From positions 4,057,567 through 4,121,566 of the forward strand of contig MU053629.1 of assembly GCA_013239625.1 (NCBI GenBank): a stretch of 64,000 bases of DNA, read 5' to 3'. A model generated the notes under the pieces. The model was not told the origin of the DNA and did no database searches. It was given only the letters and a program-made list of their open reading frames with translations. Within the stretch, counting starts at the first letter, position 1. Each line of letters begins with the position of its first letter. Source of the DNA: Lama guanicoe. Its lineage: Eukaryota. The translations under genes were made by a program, and so were the position numbers. Below, in pieces: positions 9,116 through 59,805 of the stretch.

Positions 9116-9154
<39 letters not shown>
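9094..9154. repeat. Compound (AG)n(GT)n microsatellite
   Basis: Read directly from sequence. Confidence 0.98.
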
Positions 9155-11855: not shown

Positions 11856-13499
11856 CAAATGCAATGCTTTGTGATAAAAAGGGACTGTGGAACAAGTAAG
11901 TTTCAATATGCCAGTTTCTGCTGTCAGAGATTCAAAAAACTAGATTGGATTATTACAGTCTTAATGTAAGAATAGTTGTCTAACCCAATGCTTCCCAAAA
12001 TGTTTGTCCACCAACGTCTCCCCCACCGCCCATCCTTTCCAGGATACCAATGGACATCCCATGGAATACACTTTGGGAAATAAGCAATAGAGGAAAGAGT
12101 ATGGGCTTTGGAGTCAAGGAAGATCTAAGCTGAGTGCTGTGTGGCTTCAAGCATATCACTTAACCTCTCTGAGCCTGAGAGTCCTACTCCATAAAATGAG
12201 GGAGAGTCATAGAGATGAAAGATAACCCAGATAAAGCACCTGGCACTGTACCTGGTTGCTACTTGAGTCTTTGGCCATTCTCATTAACTCTGGATCATGC
12301 TTTGGGAAGAATATGACATTAGAGGCAGAAGATCCTGGCTTGAGAGATAGTTGTACCACTTTTGTGAGACTCTGGGTGAGTGACTTCATTTTTCAGAGCC
12401 TCCGTGTTCTGAACTGTAGTGTGGAGATGATAACGTCCACTTGGGGGAGAGGAGGTATGTGAAAAAATTTGGCACAGAGCAGGCTCACCCAATGTCAGAG
12501 GTGCTGTCTGAGCTGAGCTGGGTCCACAGACCCTGTGGGCAAGCTCCACCCCTGCCTCTTCCCTGAAGGCGACATCCAAACAGAGCATCTTGGTGCAGGA
12601 AGTCAGGCAGGGTGGCTTTGGCATTTCTGTGTCGCCCTGCCTCCCAGCCCGCCCCTCCATCTTCCTCAGGAATCACCGCTGGGCCCCCAGGGGGGCTCCC
12701 CAGGGCAGACCTCTGCTCCAACCCACTCTGTCACCTTGTCACCCAGGCCCGCAGCACTCAGGGCAGCTCCCAGCCTTCACTCGGGCCGGGTTCCCCAGAG
12801 CACAAGGTCGAAGCCACCGATGTGTGGTGGAGTCTTGACTCTGCCACGGGAACCTCAGGAAATCACTGCCCCTCTGAGCCTCATTTTGGCTTGAAATGGC
12901 CTTGAAAGTGGAGATGAGGAGACAGCTGGACTTGCTTCACAGGGTTGTGAGGAAGATGAAGTGAGAAAAAGATGTACCTGTGAACGGGCTTGTAAGTGAT
13001 GCCGTGAGCTAAGTCGTTGGTCACTGCAGGGTCCTTGGCCATCCCAGCTTCTCTCTTGAGGCCTGTCATTGTCCTTAGGAGCCCTCCCCCTCTCCAGAGC
13101 CCAGAACTTTGCTTTCTCTGTAACATTCACGTTGTGCTAACCGCTAACAGCTGTTTCCCCGATTCCCCCTCAGCGCTCCCGGACCCGCCCCTTCGCCCCG
13201 AGCATCTCCGCGAGGCTCCCTGTGCCTTCACTCTTGCCGGGCGCACAGGCCCGGCCACCGCTCTTTCCATGGGATGCCTTCAAGTCTCACGTCTTCGGCA
13301 GGCCCCTCCGCCAGCCCTGAGAGCAGCTTCTTTCCTTAACAATGCTCGGTGCTCTATTGTGTGTGCGCCCCGCGCCCCACGCTGCGCTGGGGGCTGGGCT
13401 CCTCTTGTGACACCAGACCTATCAACAGGGACCGGCCGATGAGGCTGCTGCCATCTCGCTCATCCCAGGCAGAAACACGGGGCCAGAACTTGAGCAGAA

Positions 13500-13617
13500 A
13501 TGCCCCGAAGGTTCCCGGCCACCCAGCGGTGCAGGTTGGACTCGCACTTTGACCGTGACTCCCACCCCAGCCCTTTCCACCCCTCTCAGGGCTGCCCACT
13601 CCGGCCACGTGGAAAAG
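13500..13617 (+). CDS. Candidate first coding exon of a hypothetical 111-aa protein
   Basis: ATG at 13500 with purine at -3, downstream of CpG-rich 13170-13440; consensus donor AAG|gtaagt (13618-13623); phase 1. Confidence 0.15.

Positions 13618-16118: not shown

Positions 16119-16120
<2 letters not shown>

Positions 16121-16152
<32 letters not shown>
16121..16152. repeat. (GT)16 microsatellite
   Basis: Read directly from sequence. Confidence 0.98.
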
Positions 16153-20010: not shown

Positions 20011-22719
20011 ACAAAACCCTCATGAAAAGAAAATCCTGCTGGATTCCACCCTGCGGGAAAGGACTTCTCCTGACCTCGGGGCCCACTGTTCTGGGAACCA
20101 ATGAGCAGGTAAGGGGACATCACCCAGAAGTACAATGGGGGAGTGTGCCTCCATCCATCCTGACACACTGGAATTTGGGGACAAAGTGATGCCCGTGATG
20201 AGCTGAAGCTGGAATGTGACAAGATGTGGCAGAAACAGTTAACGTGGCTGCACATTCTAGCAGGGTCAGGTCCCGGCTGGTCACGAAAGGGACTCTGCCC
20301 TCAGTTCCATGTGCCAAGGAGCTGAGTGACTCATAGCACCCTTGGTCTGTGGTTATTAAATATGTCATCGCTCCATCTGCTTCCCAAACTCAGCCCCTGT
20401 GCAGCCACCTGTGACTAAGCCCGCCTTAGTCAACAAGCAAGTCAACATGCTGGGGACATTTGGTAGGTGAAAGCTGTCGAGGATATCGGGGGGCTGTGTG
20501 TTTTTCCTGGCACCAGGATCAGGGTGACTAAGAGAGGCATGCATAACCATAGGAACAACCCCTCCTACTTATGCAGTCCCAAGAGTCTCCAGAACATTTT
20601 TGTACATAAGATCTTGCTGATCCCTGCAGCTGTTTTGTAAGCAAGGGATTGCAGAACTAGTCACCCTGGGGCTTAAGAGTGCAGAGATAGCAAACCGCCT
20701 GCTCTCAGGCCGCTCTCCTCCACTCCCTTGCTCATGGCAGACATCATTAATCAATCACATCACTCTTCCCAGTTCAGAATCTTTCTCTACATAGCCCTCC
20801 ACATAGCCACTACCAGTCGATTGACGATCACCATCCCTGATGTAGTGGATGGAGGTTGATTACCTACATGGCTGGGCGACCTGGGGCAATTCTTGTCAGT
20901 TTTCCCATCTGAAAAACAGGAAGATAGACTGGAAATCCTGTGTTTCTGTGAAACGGTCTCTCTTCCTTCTCTGCTCCCTTCAACGTCATTGTAGCTCAAT
21001 TGTCTCTTGTCACCTCTGCAGGGACCCCATGCCGGTCTCCTCTCTGGGCCCCGGTGCATGGTGGAAACTTGCCAGCGTGCTCTTCCCAAAGTTCTCAGCT
21101 CAAGAACTTCTAGAAGTCCCCCACCGCCTTCCCAAGAGAGTCCAGCTTCAGACTGTCCATGATCTGGCCCTGCTGCTCATCTCCAAACTCAGTGACCAGA
21201 TTCCATGTCACACCCCCTGGTTTCAGCCAAGGTGAACGTGTTTGTCTCTGTGTGGCCCACACTATCCCACCCCGGGCCTTTGCCCACACGGCCCCTCTGC
21301 CTGGGGTGCTGCCCTCACCTCCACGCTCCATGCTGACTTCGCAAAGCCTTTTCTGTCTTCAAAAGCCATCTTAGTGCTCCTACCTCCTTAAGGACCTCAC
21401 GAATTCTCCACAATAGGGGGTGCTCTCTGCCTCCTATACATTTTAGTGCATTATTTTTCTTGTTCTCTTCCCACATGCCTATCCCTGCCCCTTCCTCAAC
21501 CTTCTGACTCACTTACTGAGGAAATTCCAGGTCACTCACAGCCGGCATTCTGTGCAACAAACAGGAGCATCACCTGGTCTGTCCCCCTTCCTTCCAAACA
21601 GAAGTCATGAGGAAGGCATTTTCTGAGACCAGGTGCCAGGTGCTGACCGGGCCACCTGGGGCCCGTGGTGCCCTCAGTTCTTTCCCTCTAGGGAGGGGTG
21701 CAGGCATCAGAGAGGTAGCTTTGGTTCTGAAATGGAACCGCCTTTGCAAAGTCTGTGCCCCGATAGGGGCAGGGAAGGGTAATAGGAAGACAGGCCAGTC
21801 AGGGGGTAAGGCTCCCTCCCCTCTTCTCCTCCCTCTCCAGGAACCTTCATTTTCTGTGCATATTTACTGAACACTTCCTGACACACAGCAAGGACAATGA
21901 CCTGGTCTCTGCCCTAATTGTGGGGACAAGACACTCACAGGCCTCTGTGCTTGTGCTCAGGCTGTTTGCACTATCTGGACTACACTGCTACTCCCTCCCC
22001 CTAACCCGGTCTGGATCTCCCAGTCCAGCGCCACCTCCTCCAGGAAGGCCTCCCTGATTGCCTCATCTGGCCATGAACTCTGCTCATTTAAAGGACTCCC
22101 TTAGTCCTTTAACACTCATGGAGTGTTCATCCAGCTCCACCTTGCCTGCCAGGGAGATCTTTAAGCCAGAGTCCCTTTCCAAGCCTCTCTGACAGCCTTG
22201 GACCTAGACATCCTGACAACTGGGTGCCCACAAAGATCTGCCCTCAGAATGAGCAACGAGCATCCAGCATTAAGCGGGGATGCGGGAGCATGAGCCTCCC
22301 AGGGCCCTTTTCTGAAAAGTTGTCTAGAGCAAAGGGCCTGGAGAGGCAGGTCGGGCCGTAGGGAGCAGCTGGGGAAGATTAGGGCCCTCCCCCTGCCCTG
22401 ATGGGCTGAATGCCTTCATGCCAAATTCCAGGGCGTGATAGTAAAAACCAACTCTCCTTGAGGTTTTTCTAGGCCCGGGGCCAGGGGTCCGGGCTTCCCC
22501 ACAATTGCCCTCACGCCTGACAACACGGAAGGGCCTCGGGCCGCCCCACCTGGAGCAGGTCTCGTGAGGACCCGGCTAAGCCAGGAGGGCTGCGTGAGCC
22601 TCCTCGGAAAAAGGCAGCCTGGGCCGAGGTCCTGGCTGTGTCACTCACTAGCTGGTGACAACAGGTAAGTGGCTTGGTCTCTCAGGTTCCCAGCTCTTTG
22701 CTCTAAAATGGAGCCAGTC

Positions 22720-31989: not shown

Positions 31990-32855
31990 CATAAAAGTGG
32001 TGCTGAAGTGACTGGTGGCGGCTCTCCAGCGCTAGGAATTCCCTGAGGGAAAGTGGTGAAGAGAAATCGTCCCAGTGGGCAGAGCTTTGAGCAGGACGCC
32101 TGAACATTTATCTTGCCTGGAAGGAAATACATATGGCTGGAGATTTGGATCTTTGTTCGTTCGTGGACCTGGCTAATGGCTTGGTCAGGGATTTGATGGC
32201 AAAGAGGTCTGAGAGAGAGGTCTTTGGATGGGCCCCTCCAAGTGGGCTCAGAGGCAACGATATTTGCATGTCAAGTGAATGCTCATCAAAGAGCAATCTC
32301 AGTACAGAATGAGCTTAATAATCAGGTGGACCAGATGCCCCATTCTGGGTATGTCAGTGGGCTCATAAACAAAGCAGCCATGATGGCATGGGTGGGGACT
32401 TGCATGGGCCCGACTACATGAGCTTTCACTCACTAAGACCAGTCTGGTTACAGTCACTTCGGAATACCCAGCCTACCTCACAGCAGAGACCAACACAGGG
32501 CTCCCAATGCAGCACGGCTGTTTGGAGAGACCAGCCAAACACCCGATGGTAGGTCAGTTACATTGGGTTGCTTCCGTTTTGGAAACACATTTTTTTTTCT
32601 CTTCCACTGGAGAAGATGGTTATTCTGGATATGGGTTTGTCTTCCCTGTTTCTGCCTATATCACCATTCACAGACTTAACAGAATATCTTATTACTGTCA
32701 TAGTATTTCACACAGCATTGCTTCTGACCAGGGAACTCATTTCACAGCTAATGAAGTGCATCCACGGGCTTGTAGTCATAGAAGTAGCTGGTGTTACACG
32801 TTCCCCGTCATTCTAAAGCGTCAACCTAACAGGACAAGAGAAGTGCTGTTTGGAG
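31990..32855 (+). mobile_element. Degenerate ERVL internal pol fragment (RNase H to integrase core)
   Basis: Translatable remnants SGEEKSSQWAEL (RNase H), YSGYGFVFP and HSIASDQGTHFTANEV (integrase core), broken by frameshifts. Confidence 0.85.
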
Positions 32856-33189
32856 ATCTGGGCTTGGGGTCAGACCAACCTGGCGATGCATTCTCCCTCT
32901 GACACGTACAGTTGTGTAGACTGGGTAAGCTACGTGTCTGTTTCCAAATGGAGTGGAGTGAACACTAAAAATACAGTAGCTATGATCATCACTCCTTTTT
33001 TCCTTAAATTCCCTAAATTACTCAGCATTAACACAATTAGCTCAAGCAACTGGAGGGTACAAGCTTTTCGTCTTCTTTTCGCTCCTGTCTATGTGTATAA
33101 GATTTTCTTTTCCATTCCATTCAGCCTTTCTGCTCTTCTTTCCACTGTTCTGGCCATTCTCAGGTTAAATAATTATAGGTGCTCCCAAA

Positions 33190-33770
33190 AGATGTAGCTG
33201 TGTGGCTGTTCATTATAGCGTTGTTTATAGTAGTAAAAAAAAATTGGAAACTACCTAGATACTCACTAATTGAGAATTGTTTAAAAATTACTATGTATCA
33301 ATTTGGAGGAGGGTGTAGCTCAAGTGGTAGCATGCATGAGGTCCTGGGTTCAATCCCCAGTATCTCCTCTAAGAATAAATAAATAAACCTAATTACCTCC
33401 CCCCACCAAAAAAATAAAAAGGAAGTAAGGAAACAAACAAAATTGCTATGTATCGGTTGAATGAAATACTCTGTAGCTATTAATGTTTTAGAGGAGCATT
33501 TATTAAATAGATAGTCATGATACACTAGTAAGTAAAAAAAGGCAAGTTATAAACTAGTAATATGCTGTATAATTTCATTTTAGTGTTGTTTAAAAGCTCT
33601 ATATCTTGCATTAAAATAATGCTTGAATTATATAAAATATACTGGGCAGAGTGATTATTAAGTCTGGGAGATGGGAAATTGGGTGATTTTCATTTTCTCC
33701 TTTTGCTTGTTCATAGTTCCTAAATTTGTTTTAATATCTGTGTATTGTATTTGTAGTGTAAAAAAGTATC
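33190..33770 (+). mobile_element. L1ME-like fragment (duplicated at 35273-35853), host of a SINE
   Basis: 'tgttcattatagcgttgtttatagtag...ttggaaactacct...tgaaatactctgtagctatt'. Confidence 0.7.
33305..33438 (+). mobile_element. tRNA-derived SINE (camelid Vic-1-like)
   Basis: A box gtagctcaagtggtag, B box gggttcaatccc, body aacctaattacctcccc, A-rich tail, TSD aaaatt(a/g)ctatgtatc. Confidence 0.85.
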
Positions 33771-34832
33771 ACCCCCCCAAAAATGTTTTTAATGTAGAGA
33801 GGCTGAGGGCCGGGCCAGGTGGGCTCTGCCCGCCCCATCCCGGGCTGTCTTCTCCTGCATCTGGGAGGGTACCAGCTGGCCGGAAGGAGATTTCAGCCAC
33901 ATAATTTCTGTAACCTCCAGGGCACGGCCCTTCCTTGGCATGACTCCATCCTTGTCCTGGCAGCCCCTGGCTTTCCTGTAATGGCAGGGAGAGAATTCCC
34001 CTAACCCGGTCCACCAAGAGGATGGGAGAATGTCACAAGAGTCGCCTCCGGGACCAAGACCAAATTCGCCATATTCAGGACATCAGACAGGAATGTGGCT
34101 GCCTGGGAGAAATGGGCCTGAACCCAGCACCTGGGCTGCGTGTATTGGCTGAGGTTCACAAAGACGCTGGACTTCAGTCTGGCAGATTGAAAATATTTTT
34201 CAGTGGAGTCCCAGTATTTGACTGGAGAAATAATATTCCTTCTCTGGATGTCAAACATCCGGATAAATAGAAGCCTTTTTTTCCCGCCTGCACTCTTCCC
34301 TGAGTGTTACAAAGGATGCTCTGACATAGGGTTTTGGAAGGGACTCGCCTTGCCAGGGTGAAGGCCAGCTTGAGCCACAGGGAGTGCTTATTTTTAAAGG
34401 AGTGGGAAACGTGTGGCCCATCACAGGTTTGCTCAAAGGGCCTGGCTTCCTCAGGAGAGAGGGTGTGGGATCGCAGGACCTGCCTTCCTGGCCGTGAAGG
34501 GCTCCGAGAGTGCAGTGGGTGCCCAGGCCCCCTGCCCCGGCAGGAGGCTGCGACAAGGCAGGGCTGGGGAGGGTCCTGGCAGGGAGTGTATTCCACCCAG
34601 AGCTGGGCTGTGGGTGCAGCCAGAGTCAGGGAACAGGGGTAGGAGTCGGGAGTGGAGAGGGAGGTTGAGGGCAGACATTAGATGAAGAACTCCCATTATT
34701 TTCAATGAACTGGAACCCAGGATGCCCAAGCCACAGAAAGCGCATCTCACCCAGCAGCTGGGCAAATCCAGCGGCTTTGGCTAGACGCAGAAATCGAATG
34801 AAGGCATTCCTAGTGAGTCTTCCCTCAAATAT

Positions 34833-36915
34833 CACAGCTAATGAAGTGCATCCACGGGCTTGTAGTCATAGAAGTAGCTGGTGTTACACCAGCTACTAAA
34901 GCGTCAACCTAACAGGACAAGAGAAGTGCTGTTTGGAGATCTGGGCTTGGGGTCAGACCAACCTGGCGATGCATTCTCCCTCTGACACGTACAGTTGTGT
35001 AGACTGGGTAAGCTACGTGTCTGTTTCCAAATGGAGTAGAGTGAACACTAAAAATACAGTAGCTATGATCATCACTCCTTTTTTCCTTAAATTCCCTAAA
35101 TTACTCAGCATTAACACAATTAGCTCAAGCAACTGGAGGGTACAAGCTTTTCGTCTTCTTTTCGCTCCTGTCTATGTGTATAAGATTTTCTTTTCCATTC
35201 CATTCAGCCTTTCTGCTCTTCTTTCCACTGTTCTGGCCATTCTCAGGTTAAATAATTATAGGTGCTCCCAAAAGATGTAGCTGTGTGGCTGTTCATTATA
35301 GCGTTGTTTATAGTAGTAAAAAAAAATTGGAAACTACCTAGATACTCACTAATTGAGAATTGTTTAAAAATTACTACGTATCAATTTGGAGGAGGGTGTA
35401 GCTCAAGTGGTAGCATGCATGAGGTCCTGGGTTCAATCCCCAGTATCTCCTCTAAGAATAAATAAATAAACCTAATTACCTCCCCCCACCAAAAAAATAA
35501 AAAGGAAGTAAGGAAACAAACAAAATTGCTATGTATCAGTTGAATGAAATACTCTGTAGCTATTAATGTTTTAGAGGAGCATTTATTAAATAGATAGTCA
35601 TGATACACTAGTAAGTAAAAAAAGGCAAGTTATAAACTAGTAATATGCTGTATAATTTCATTTTAGTGTTGTTTAAAAGCTCTATATCTTGCATTAAAAT
35701 AATGCTTGAATTATATAAAATATACTGGGCAGAGTGATTATTAAGTCTGGGAGATGGGAAATTGGGTGATTTTCATTTTCTCCTTTTGCTTGTTCATAGT
35801 TCCTAAATTTGTTTTAATATCTGTGTATTGTATTTGTAGTGTAAAAAAGTATCACCCCCCCAAAAATGTTTTTAATGTAGAGAGGCTGAGGGCCGGGCCA
35901 GGTGGGCTCTGCCCGCCCCATCCCGGGCTGTCTTCTCCTGCATCTGGGAGGGTACCAGCTGGCCGGAAGGAGATTTCAGCCACATAATTTCTGTAACCTC
36001 CAGGGCACGGCCCTTCCTTGGCATGACTCCATCCTTGTCCTGGCAGCCCCTGGCTTTCCTGTAATGGCAGGGAGAGAATTCCCCTAACCCGGTCCACCAA
36101 GAGGATGGGAGAATGTCACAAGAGTCGCCTCCGGGACCAAGACCAAATTCGCCATATTCAGGACATCAGACAGGAATGTGGCTGCCTGGGAGAAATGGGC
36201 CTGAACCCAGCACCTGGGCTGCGTGTATTGGCTGAGGTTCACAAAGACGCTGGACTTCAGTCTGGCAGATTGAAAATATTTTTCAGTGGAGTCCCAGTAT
36301 TTGACTGGAGAAATAATATTCCTTCTCTGGATGTCAAACATCCGGATAAATAGAAGCCTTTTTTTCCCGCCTGCACTCTTCCCTGAGTGTTACAAAGGAT
36401 GCTCTGACATAGGGTTTTGGAAGGGACTCGCCTTGCCAGGGTGAAGGCCAGCTTGAGCCACAGGGAGTGCTTATTTTTAAAGGAGTGGGAAACGTGTGGC
36501 CCATCACAGGTTTGCTCAAAGGGCCTGGCTTCCTCAGGAGAGAGGGTGTGGGATCGCAGGACCTGCCTTCCTGGCCGTGAAGGGCTCCGAGAGTGCAGTG
36601 GGTGCCCAGGCCCCCTGCCCCGGCAGGAGGCTGCGACAAGGCAGGGCTGGGGAGGGTCCTGGCAGGGAGTGTATTCCACCCAGAGCTGGGCTGTGGGTGC
36701 AGCCAGAGTCAGGGAACAGGGGTAGGAGTCGGGAGTGGAGAGGGAGGTTGAGGGCAGACATTAGATGAAGAACTCCCATTATTTTCAATGAACTGGAACC
36801 CAGGATGCCCAAGCCACAGAAAGCGCATCTCACCCAGCAGCTGGGCAAATCCAGCGGCTTTGGCTAGACGCAGAAATCGAATGAAGGCATTCCTAGTGAG
36901 TCTTCCCTCAAATAT
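34833..36915 (+). repeat. Tandem duplication, copy 2 (2083 bp)
   Basis: Differences seen from copy 1: three substitutions and one 13-to-6-bp replacement. Confidence 0.97.
35388..35521 (+). mobile_element. tRNA-derived SINE (Vic-1-like), duplicated copy
   Basis: Appears identical to 33305-33438. Confidence 0.85.
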
Positions 36916-38004
36916 GACTGGCATTTGGGGGAGCCACTGGGGAATTTATAGGAAGGAAGGTAGCAGAGAATAATCCTAAACCTTCCTCACGTTGGAGAAT
37001 GAATCATGAAAACCTTCCATTCCCCTGGGTTCTACTGAGCAACATCTTAACTCTGTTCAGCCAGTGACCCCTAGGCTGCGCCGTCTGTCCCCTCACTCAC
37101 TGCTTATCTCCACATCACAGGCACAGCCTGCTTCCTGACACATGGCCACCCTGCCTGGCTATCTGGACCCCTCCCCTGGGCCAGGATAAAAATACCTCTT
37201 TCCAGCACTTCATCCCGGTCCAGCTCATCCTGAGCCAACGGGCAGCCCTGCGGGGGCAGACTCACTGACCTGCCTTTCCCTCTGCTGGGACACGGTGGCC
37301 CTACCCATCTCCACGCCATGCCTTTACTCTGTGAGAGTCACACCTTCACAGGCAGAACCAGCACCCACTCAAGTGTCCTTCCATCACGCGTGCTCAAAAT
37401 GGAGACTCGGTGCTTTGACTTGATGGGGTAAACTTGAGCCTCCTCACTAGAAGTTCTTGGAAAACTGAGTGTAGGGCTTCCTCTCCGTTCATATAGACTG
37501 AATCAGTCCCACCTCCAGGCTGGAATGGAAATCCTGGCTCCTCTGCAGAGGCTCTAATCCTGAGCCCATGGCCAATCTGCCCCTTGGTTTCCAACTTCTC
37601 CACCCTCCCTGGTCCAAACACCCTTTATCTCTGCTGAATTACCACAGTAGCTTCCTTCCTCTGTCCACTCTGGTCTCATCCAACCCACTCACCGCACAGT
37701 AGTTCTGCTTAAAACCTTTCCCTGATCTGCCACTGCGCTCAGAAAACAATCCAGGCTCCTCACCCAGTGACCTGGCCATCTGTCCTTGCTTGTCGCATCT
37801 TCACCCAGAGTGCTCTGTATCATGGCTTGCCACGCACTTTCCTGCCTCAGGGCCTACCCCGTTTCTGTTCCCACTGCCTGGAACACCCTCACCTCACCAG
37901 GCTGGCTCTTTGTAATTCTTTTTCTGTCAAGTCCAAGTGTTTTTACAGAGGCTTCCTTTGACCTTCTGAGCCAAGAAAGTCCCTCATGGGTTTTCCTCTT
38001 TTCT

Positions 38005-41137: not shown

Positions 41138-41787
41138 ATATTAGTCTGAACTCTCTAGATAAACAGAGGGGCACCCAACACAAATTTACTGCAGTGGACT
41201 TTCCATAGACTATATATATGTGTGTACATATAAACATATACATGAGAATATATATAACATATATGTAGATATATAACATAAACACGATATAGATACATAA
41301 TAAACATGTAGCTATGTAATATAGCACATATAGATATACACATGCTAATTTATCTGTCTGTATATATAGAGAGATCTATAGCTGTATCCATATCTATATA
41401 ATTGGTTCATGCGGAATAGAAGCTAAGTCCTGTGATCTATAGTCAGCAAGCTGGAGAGCCAGGGGAGCCGAAGGTATAGTTCCAGTCCAAGGTCAAAGGC
41501 CTGAGAAGCGAGGGAGCCAGCAGTATAAGCGCCAGTCTGAGTGTGGGTCCCAAGGCGGGAGAAGACCAATGTTCTGCTTAAAGTCCTCCCTCGACCTGCC
41601 TTTTTGTTCTATTCAGGCCTCCGATGGATTGGATGAGGTCCGCACACACTGGGGAGGGCAATCTCCTTTACTTGGTGCACTGATTCAAATGTTAATCTCA
41701 CCTGGAAATACCCTCACAGAATAACGTTTCACCAAATATCTGGGCACACCACGGCCCGGTCAAGTTGACACATAAAATTAGCATCTC
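41138..41787 (-). mobile_element. MLT2B-like ERVL LTR with expanded degenerate (TA)-rich tract
   Basis: 'gattggatgagg...ggagggcaatct...gattcaaatgttaatctca...gtcaagttgacacataaaatta'; TA-rich at ~41208-41400. Confidence 0.85.
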
Positions 41788-42115: not shown

Positions 42116-42307
42116 GGGTTGTCTGAGTTAGGAAGAAAAAAATACAGGCTGTCTAGTTAAATTTGAATTTCAGATTAACAATGAATACTTTTTTTAGTAT
42201 AAATACGTCTCATGCAACATTTGGGACCTATTTATATGAAAAAATTATTTGTTGTTTATCTGAAATTCAAATTCCTCAGGATGTCTTATATTTTATCAGA
42301 CAACCCT
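42116..42307. mobile_element. MER53 palindromic hAT MITE inside an old MaLR LTR
   Basis: TIRs gggttgtctga/tcagacaaccc; internal arms aatttgaatttcagat / atctgaaattcaaatt. Confidence 0.85.
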
Positions 42308-50179: not shown

Positions 50180-50322
50180 TTTTTTTTTTTTTAAGAAATT
50201 TTTTGGAGAGGACAGGTAATTAGGTTTGTTTATTTGTTTGTTGGTTTTTAATGGAGGTACTGGGAATTGAACCCAGGACCCAGTGCTAAGCATGCACTCT
50301 GCCACTGAGCTATACCCTCTCC
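50180..50322 (-). mobile_element. tRNA-Ala-derived SINE (Vic-1-like)
   Basis: Antisense A/B boxes ('ccactgagctataccc', 'gggaattgaacccagg'), poly-T tail, TSD gg(c/t)gcctccctct. Confidence 0.85.
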
Positions 50323-52310: not shown

Positions 52311-52458
52311 GGGGTTGGGGATGTAGCTCAGTGGGAGAGCGCATGCCTTGCAGGCACAAGGTCCTGAGTTCAATTCCCAGGACCTCCATTTAAAATTAAT
52401 AAGTACACCTAATTACTTCCCCTGCCAACAACAACAAAAGCTAAAATTAAAAAAAAAA
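52311..52458 (+). mobile_element. tRNA-derived SINE (Vic-1-like) with perfect 14-bp TSD
   Basis: A/B boxes, poly-A tail; AAGTTGGTGTTTTG at 52297-52310 and 52459-52472. Confidence 0.9.
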
Positions 52459-53581: not shown

Positions 53582-53765
53582 GAAAGAAAGAAAGAAGGAA
53601 AGGAAGGAAGGAAGGAAGAAGAAAGAGAAGAAAGGGAGAAAGAAAGAAAGGAAGGAAGAAAGCAAGGAAGGAAGGAGAAAGGAAGAAAAAAAGAAAGAAA
53701 GGGAGGGAGGAAGGAAGGAAGAAAAAGAAATAGAAAGAAAGAAAGGAAGGAAAGAAGGAAAGAAG
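53582..53765 (+). repeat. Polypurine (GAAA/GGAA) low-complexity tract
   Basis: About 180 nt, almost entirely A/G. Confidence 0.97.
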
Positions 53766-58104: not shown

Positions 58105-58196
58105 GGGGATGGGTACAGCTCAGTGGTAAAGTGCATGCTTAGCATGCAGGAGGTCCTGGGTTCAATCCCCAGCACCTTCATTAAAAAAAAAAAAAA
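58105..58196 (+). mobile_element. Short tRNA-Ala-derived SINE (Vic-1-like)
   Basis: tRNA-like head with AGC anticodon arm (catgcttagcatg), B box, poly-A; no intact acceptor stem. Confidence 0.85.
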
Positions 58197-59713
58197 GATA
58201 ATGACAAAGCGCCGAAACCAACTGGGGGGCCACCCGTGGTACACACCGGCCTCCTGTTGTTTTATCGGTGGATTAGCTGCTTAGCTTCCACCTCGTCTCT
58301 GGACTGAGGTCAGGTTTGCGAATTGCATCTCAGCATCCTTCGCAGGGCCTGGCACAGTTGGGTGCCCAGTAGGACCTCAATAAGCGTGTGTGATTGGATC
58401 CTTAAGCGGGGTGAGGCCCACCTTCTGGGCACTATTTTCTTCAACATTCTGAGAAGAACCAGCAACAGGCATGGAAGGGGTGATGCAGAGCCCTGGCATT
58501 TTGCCCTTGTTCTGTCACTGATTATCTGTGTGACTCTGGGAGAGACACACCTGACTTTCAGCCTCAGTCTCCAATCGGCAGCCCGGAGGCTGGGGCAGGT
58601 GGGTTCCCTCCCGGGGAGGGGAAGCCTACAGGCAGCACGGTCCCTCACAGGGTAGCATGTGGTGGGAGGAATGTGCCAGAAGCAGGGACAAGCAAACCTG
58701 CTCTGTCTCAGGCCAAACTGGCTGCCAGACTCGCCCCTCTCACAAGGCAGGAAGCAGGCAAGCCCCCTGTGACAGATTTCACTGGAAAACCTAAGACCCA
58801 GCCCAGGACTCAGGACCAGAACATAGCGAAGCAATCTAGCCCCTCATCCACATTCTCCGGCTGCTCTAGACTTTGATCACCAGCCTAGGTGAAGGTCCCG
58901 TGTGGTCGACCAGCCAGATCACCCATTTACACCCCTCCCCTATACCACACAAGCAAGGTGTCCACGGACAGATGACTGGATAAAGCAGTTTGGGTCCATA
59001 TACACACACAGTGTACTGTAAAGTCAGACCACTTGGTTTCATTGCCAGCCCTGCCTGGCACTACTCACCTACCTTCTCTCTGCCTCAGCTTCCTCAGCTT
59101 TAAAATGGGTATAGTATTTATAGCTGCCCGTAGGGTTGTTGTAGGGCATAAATGATCTAATTTTATGTAAAGCACTTGGAACCATACTTGTTACACAATA
59201 AATCACTCAGGAAAGTATTATTATTACAATTATTATTTGTGGGATGATGCAGGCCAGCCTGGGTGCCAGTCTGCTCACATACAGTAACATCTGCATCTTG
59301 TCATCGCAGATAACAAATGAGGAAGTCCCGCATCACCACGGGGGCTTGGCCTCTGATACAGGTGCAGGGCCTCCCCGGGATAAGCTTGTGGATCCTACAA
59401 GTTATGCCTCTGAAACCCCCAGGGGCAAGGAGCGCAGGCCTTCCACCAGGTGGATTTAGCAGCTCATCTCCCTGGGCCGGCTTCCTCGTCAGCCTCTCCG
59501 GACTCAGATGCCAAAGCCGCCAGTCCCCTCCTGGCAGAATCCCAGGCTGCTCCGACTCAGTTTTTGCTGGAGGACCAGGTCTGGGCCCCCTGCCTGCTCT
59601 CTGGCTGGGGCTCTGGCCCCAGCTCACCCCAGGATTGATGCTGACTTGCCTGAGGACCCTCAGCTGCCTTTCTGTCCGGAGAGGGCGCTAGCCAACATTG
59701 GGGAGTAATACAT

Positions 59714-59805
59714 TTCTTTTTCTTTAATTGGAGGCACTGAGGATTGAACTCAGGACCTCATGCATGCTCAGCACGCGCTCTACCACTGAGCTACCCCCTC
59801 CCCCC
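59714..59805 (-). mobile_element. Short tRNA-derived SINE (Vic-1-like)
   Basis: Antisense 'ctctaccactgagcta' and 'ggattgaactcaggacctc'; short TSD catttct. Confidence 0.8.

Follow-up and report, generated by a model that had tools for sequence, protein, structure and literature searches.

A unit of about 2 kb is present twice in tandem in the window (the whole stretch of DNA that was analysed, 64 kb of mammalian DNA with 50% G+C and an N count of 0), and shortly after the junction the second copy carries a short replacement that has turned its surroundings into a perfect inverted repeat. The locus raises two questions, namely how the replacement was generated and whether it belongs to the same event as the duplication. 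The duplication was the dominant long self-match of the window, between 32739-34835 and 34829-36918, with 99.2% identity. Copy 1 (32743-34832, plus strand) comprises 2,090 bp and copy 2 (34833-36915, plus strand) 2,083 bp, and the latter is distinguished by the replacement and by three transitions at positions 35038, 35377 and 35538. At the junction (34829-34835, plus strand) a 1-base microhomology is located at position 34832, the parental ends agree at 5 of 7 positions, and neither inserted bases nor Ns are present. The similarity of the breakpoints was weak: 6 of 11 positions agreed, a p value of about 0.04 was obtained at the best of six window sizes and values of 0.06-0.26 at the other five, and the gapped local score was equalled by 72% of random pairs. 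Breakpoint homeology was not significant and was dropped as support. A small inverted repeat with 5-bp arms (32737-32754) has the start point of the duplication on its loop side, and the end point (36915) lies inside another inverted repeat (36909-36927); both repeats are of a size that is common by chance.

The divergence between the copies is 0.14% (95% interval 0.03-0.42%), which would fit a young duplication or heterozygosity alike. All four differences lie within the first 706 of the 2,083 bp of the unit, and the final 1,377 bp are identical; for the clustering of the three substitutions within this first third, which was noticed post hoc, p was about 0.04. This distribution is compatible with a tract of error-prone synthesis, with the border of a haplotype, with gene conversion and with chance. 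Both copies look like real DNA, because all three substitutions are transitions (two of them at CpG/TpG-type sites) and all eight homopolymer runs of at least 6 bases agree between the copies.

The unit includes a tRNA-derived SINE (about 33309-33413) with its target-site duplication (33285-33454, plus strand), which was copied with the unit to 35368-35537 and which, from its appearance, may be the camelid element Vic-1. Camels carry vic-1 as a simple SINE (PMC3531059). The target-site duplication (TSD) indicated that copy 2 is derived at position 35377 (T in three of four TSD copies). At position 35538 the indications conflict, CpG decay pointing to copy 2 as derived and the TSD to copy 1. 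An Rfam search over the window yielded four tRNA-like SINE heads, and four more tRNA-derived SINEs were found at 50199-50319, 52317-52434, 58108-58195 and 59712-59798, with 72-84% identity to the SINE of the duplicated unit.

Replaced segment and inverted repeat

The two strings that had been quoted for copy 1 and copy 2 in the initial annotation were found to be exact. An exact run at offset 2090 spans 34832-34889 (copy 1 32742-32799), and the run at offset 2083 begins at 34896 (copy 1 32813). A segment of 13 bases (32800-32812, plus strand), which is ancestral (see below), has been kept in copy 1 and is absent from copy 2, where 6 new bases are present (34890-34895, plus strand). This 13-for-6 replacement, with a net change of -7, explains the offset change from 2090 to 2083, as had been proposed. 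The product is a perfect inverted repeat (34873-34897) with 12-bp arms (34873-34884 and 34886-34897) and a 1-base centre; in copy 1 the arms have 4 bp, so that the previously noticed extension of a 4-bp stem to a perfect 12-bp inverted repeat was verified. When folded as DNA, the repeat forms a stem of 11 bp that is closed by a loop of 3 bases. The folding energy of the copy-2 hairpin was -11.5 kcal/mol (z -4.83), none of 200 shuffled sequences folded as well, and the matching stretch of copy 1 had a z value of 0.01. Among the five perfect inverted repeats in the 64 kb (arms of at least 9 bp, loops of at most 10 bases) it is the longest, and arms of at least 12 bp occurred in none of 60 Markov-simulated windows. 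The next-longest perfect inverted repeat (22088-22112) has 10-bp arms and a 5-base loop, and it has no second copy that could be used to polarise it. The distance to the junction, which had been given as about 45 bp, had to be revised: from the junction at 34832 it is 41 bp to the left arm and 58 bp to the first of the replaced bases.

The direction of the change was deduced from relatives of a decayed, frameshifted retroviral integrase relic (32237-32839, plus strand; frame 32384-32899), inside which the duplication starts. One of its frameshifts directly precedes the replaced segment, and from its motif the relic probably belongs to ERVL. A Pfam search with six window frames over the relic yielded no match, and the integrase call rests on the 112 relatives, of which 20 were scanned and 7 matched Pfam rve, 4 of them above the cut-off. 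Most relatives (89 of 112) were left out, 42 because they had no anchor motif and 47 because they had no second anchor or ended too early. Of the 23 that were anchored across the site, 20 favoured copy 1 and 2 favoured copy 2, with 1 tie. The query was a single copy-1 frame, which could introduce a bias toward copy 1; 18 of the 23 relatives matched best in a frame that was absent from the query, and copy 1 was still the better fit for 16 of them. In addition, the match of a cluster of 11 members (P0001) to copy 1 runs across the site and continues into the downstream flank, and a further relative (P0005) matches at 8 of 10 residues across the site; these two apparently represent the same locus in other mammals. 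For the reverse change, no piece of at least 6 bases of the 13-mer was found at a distance of up to 200 bp from the site in copy 2. Judged by these relatives and by the two apparent orthologous loci, the state of copy 1 is ancestral and that of copy 2 is derived, in agreement with the initial proposal.

Within 200 bp, two sources for the 6 new bases were found, an inverted one with four matching bases before and two after, and a direct 6-mer. The new bases are the reverse complement of 34875-34880, which is the only flanked template within this distance; in copy-1 coordinates the inverted template covers 32783-32794, with a total match of 12. Directly before the new bases lies an older 4-base primer arm (34886-34889, plus strand), which pairs with 34881-34884 and marks the first switch (left homology 4). 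Directly after them lies a 2-base microhomology for the return switch (34896-34897, plus strand), which is common to 32813-32814 and complementary to 34873-34874 (right homology 2). The ancestral site itself is a weak quasi-palindrome (32779-32815 in copy 1), with a 5-bp outer stem (32779-32783/32811-32815) and a 4-bp inner stem (32791-32799).

A bare 6-base match is commonplace, as 215 of 2,304 6-mers had one within 100 bp. When flanking matches were included, only 1 of the 2,304 possible 6-mers at the site reached 12 matched bases, and the same total was reached in 74 of 109,593 random trials; the chance of an inverted 4/6/2 template was about 4-7 x 10^-4, and reverse-only and complement-only controls contained no exact template. 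In PMC5453318 it is stated that below 12-13 bp matches often arise by chance genome-wide, and a 14-base filter is used that is aimed at signal-to-noise, without ruling out shorter events. As an additional approach, an own rough and uncalibrated version of the pair-HMM of PMC7954356 was applied, for which the paper gives a threshold log ratio of 8.95. The values were 7.5-19.2 and lay above the threshold in 8 of the 9 settings, but the threshold was likewise exceeded by the reverse-only control in 3 settings; the inverted template exceeded this control by 4.9-7.9 log units in all 9 settings. An ordinary 13-base deletion with 6 bases that completed the inverted repeat fortuitously, either untemplated or copied from the direct 6-mer (34835-34840), is disfavoured and appears very improbable. 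It would draw on the low number of new bases, on the identical 6-mer in direct orientation beside the junction and on the settings in which the control passed. It is at odds with the low probability of the inverted template and with its superiority over the control, and the direct 6-mer was rejected as a template since such matches are common and flanking matches are absent on both sides. That the new bases were copied in reverse complement from the adjacent flank, as had been claimed, was supported by the 4/6/2 template and the empty controls, and the replacement very probably arose by a template switch.

Comparison with known types of template switching

The scar was compared with four described processes. 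From the order of its switch points it belongs to the standard 3-2-1-4 type of template switch, and its anatomy is that of snap-back end joining. It has in common with the four-point template switches of PMC5453318 and PMC7954356 the 3-2-1-4 order with one new inverted repeat, the reverse-complement fragment from within 100 bp and a direction assigned with an outgroup. According to PMC5453318, the 3-2-1-4 order makes one inverted repeat and may be intra- or inter-strand, and together with its mirror, 1-4-3-2, this type comprises 31% of the high-confidence human-chimp events. For great apes, the median 2-to-3 length is 12 (PMC7954356), which equals the match length found here, and 29.5% of events led to a net shortening, as here. 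With regard to the filters described in PMC7954356, the new bases include A, C, G and T, and the 13 lost bases are fewer than 50 deleted positions. The match is 12 bases at most and falls below the 14-base filter of PMC5453318, which is a confidence filter and not a definition. A further difference is that the catalogued switches were detected between species, whereas the scar described here was detected between paralogous copies and beside a duplication junction.

Snap-back synthesis-dependent MMEJ (SD-MMEJ), or polymerase theta templated insertion, as described in PMC5728401, shares with the scar the 4-bp inverted primer repeats, a short synthesis, a new 2-base microhomology, a deletion of less than 20 bp and an insertion that becomes part of a longer inverted repeat. 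A difference is that the primer repeats are only 1 base apart, so that initially only 3 pairs and a 3-base loop could form. In FoSTeS/MMBIR duplications (PMC2621351, PMC4352052; the source of the MMBIR model is PMC2621351), a tandem gain is likewise combined with an extra switch and small changes no more than tens of bases away from the junction. In contrast, the junctions described there have 2-5 bp of microhomology and the events comprise tens to hundreds of kb, whereas the junction here has 1 exact base and the unit 2 kb.

The initial annotation had interpreted the replacement as quasi-palindrome correction by template switching. The inverted template switch was substantiated; classic correction was not, because the outer stem was copied incompletely. 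A perfect product and a prior imperfect repeat (4-bp inner and 5-bp outer stem) are in common with the Ripley model, as outlined in PMC5453318. However, copy 1 was not near-perfect, as its z value shows, only 6 of the 12 pairs of the new stem were there beforehand, the change removed 13 bases, and had the ancestral outer stem been copied in full, the product would have been 3 bases longer than it is. A two-step route, with full correction of the outer stem and a subsequent 3-base slip, would be possible and was set aside since it needs two events.

Origin of the duplication and of the scar

The question remained whether the duplication is real and whether the scar was generated together with it. 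The best explanation is probably a real and recent tandem duplication, in which junction and fold-back would represent a single event, namely an unstable polymerase at the start of copy 2. If the plus strand is read as the new strand, synthesis would have reached position 34832 and would have been re-primed 2,090 bp upstream on the 1-base match (an imperfect match of 7 bases), after which 57 bases would have been synthesised. Then the 3' end would have detached, and its last 4 bases would have paired with the complementary 4 bases just behind, either by fold-back or by a switch to the opposite strand. Eight bases would have been copied backwards before release, and the last 2 bases would have re-annealed 13 bases further along the template. 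We infer that junction and fold-back belong together, which way synthesis ran and which enzyme was at work (MMBIR-type synthesis or polymerase theta), and the sequence is compatible with either enzyme.

Several observations make it plausible that the scar arose in the same event as the duplication. The derived allele is located in the copy that follows the junction. The scar begins 58 bp into the 2,083 bp of copy 2 (if placement is taken as uniform, p is about 0.03), and a switch point at this distance probably reflects one low-processivity synthesis tract. In PMC5453318, 4,778 template-switch candidates are set against 14.5 million base differences; as substitutions outnumber these events about 3,000-fold, an unrelated template switch among only three substitutions is unlikely. 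For replicative rearrangements, additional switches at the junctions and a de novo point mutation about 50 bp away from a junction have been described (PMC4352052). As counterpoints, the scar is located away from the junction itself, and the three substitutions imply elapsed time or two haplotypes. Inserts made by polymerase theta usually lie at the junction. If the duplication is real and the scar separate, a later snap-back repair in copy 2 would have to be assumed, or an older allele acquired from the homologous chromosome. The anatomy of the scar is a complete snap-back SD-MMEJ product by itself (PMC5728401), the ancestral site was a weak quasi-palindrome, and the substitutions would provide the time or the haplotypes required. 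Nevertheless, this reading requires that an event that occurs about once per 3,000 substitutions happened to arise no more than 58 bp away from the junction, and it is regarded as rather improbable.

The scar had also been put forward as an argument that the duplication is real, and this argument had to be abandoned, as the picture would be identical if a region heterozygous for a true hairpin had been duplicated falsely. The scar shows that the allele of copy 2 is biological. A real scar does not imply a real duplication, because false duplications form preferentially at heterozygous sites (PMC9516828). The allele could thus be a real product of a template switch in a false duplication, in which two haplotypes were assembled head to tail and the second starts before the largest heterozygous difference. 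The divergence of 0.14% is within the range of mammalian heterozygosity (0.22% in platypus; Table 1 in PMC9516828), and the restriction of all differences to the first 706 bp, followed by 1,377 identical bp, would fit a heterozygous/homozygous border. In PMC9516828 it is stated that such borders are favoured and that false duplications are sometimes gapless due to wrong gap filling. Word shares in 19 sequencing runs were 0.86-0.95 (24 rows were listed, 4 of them nearly wordless and 1 unindexed), and none of the 19 runs reached 1.0; contigs of the runs with sequence in common with the window total about 2.0-2.1 Gb. The top share of 0.95 agrees equally well with modelled values of 0.946, if the junction, the hairpin and one substitution are absent, and 0.947, if junction and hairpin are present and the three substitutions are collapsed, and the word shares were not counted as evidence for either state. 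On the other hand, most false duplications are separated by gaps (PMC9516828), and the N-free junction favours a real duplication without settling the matter. The 1-base overlap within a 5-of-7 match is also slightly better than a random butt joint, though not significantly. Overall, a false duplication is judged to be unlikely. A library artefact, i.e., an amplification fold-back chimera or one bad read that produced both junction and hairpin, is hardly credible. Strand-displacing amplification is known to generate fold-back chimeras; however, three transitions (two of CpG/TpG type) and the lack of homopolymer errors are unlike one damaged molecule.

If junction and scar go back to one real duplication event, it is tempting to speculate that the whole of copy 2 represents one error-prone tract from the germ line of a mammal other than human, with the junction, the fold-back at +58, substitutions at +206, +545 and +706, and accurate copying thereafter. 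This extension is doubtful; it is based on the location of all four differences in the first third and on the derived state of copy 2 at 35377. If true, small evolutionary tandem duplications would share the low-processivity, low-fidelity start of human disease rearrangements, and template-switch hairpins should be enriched genome-wide just downstream of duplication junctions.

Significance and surroundings of the hairpin

The hairpin is regarded as a scar, for which no function is proposed, and as a clean instance of an error in copying that is well known rather than as a new element. An Rfam search yielded no match at the hairpin, and a miRNA precursor was rejected because its stem has 12 bp, compared with the 30-55 bases given for template-switch miRNA hairpins in 10.1101/2023.04.19.537475. 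Taken alone the event has little weight, as thousands have been catalogued in apes (PMC5453318, PMC7954356). Its value is that of a tidy example, with the states before and after the change side by side on one contig. The event would gain some weight if junction and hairpin proved to be inseparable, since a short template switch would then be linked to the origin of a 2-kb duplication in material other than human disease cohorts.

The surroundings are gene-poor. The scar is located in a dead endogenous-retrovirus relic, and no coding exon was detected nearby. In 269 of 273 stop-to-stop frames of at least 75 amino acids, a set that took in a minor part of the duplicated unit and no shorter frames, no Pfam match above the cut-off was found. 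The lone match below the cut-off among the scanned frames, DUF6052 (E 0.0011), was discarded. Metagenome contigs were scanned for the flank that is common to both copies, with 0 matches. Several other repeats were observed in the window. An AT-rich stretch of 114 bp (42160-42273) matches its own reverse complement at 80% and resembles an ancient miniature DNA transposon that has terminal inverted repeats. A degenerate AT-rich array was found at 41212-41336, a purine-rich GAAA array of 184 bp at 53582-53765, and two perfect GT/TG microsatellites at 9119-9154 and 16120-16152. The sole 500-bp bin with CpG-island-like composition is 13001-13500 (G+C 0.62, observed/expected 0.64), which is a possible regulatory site in a window in which coding exons were not found.
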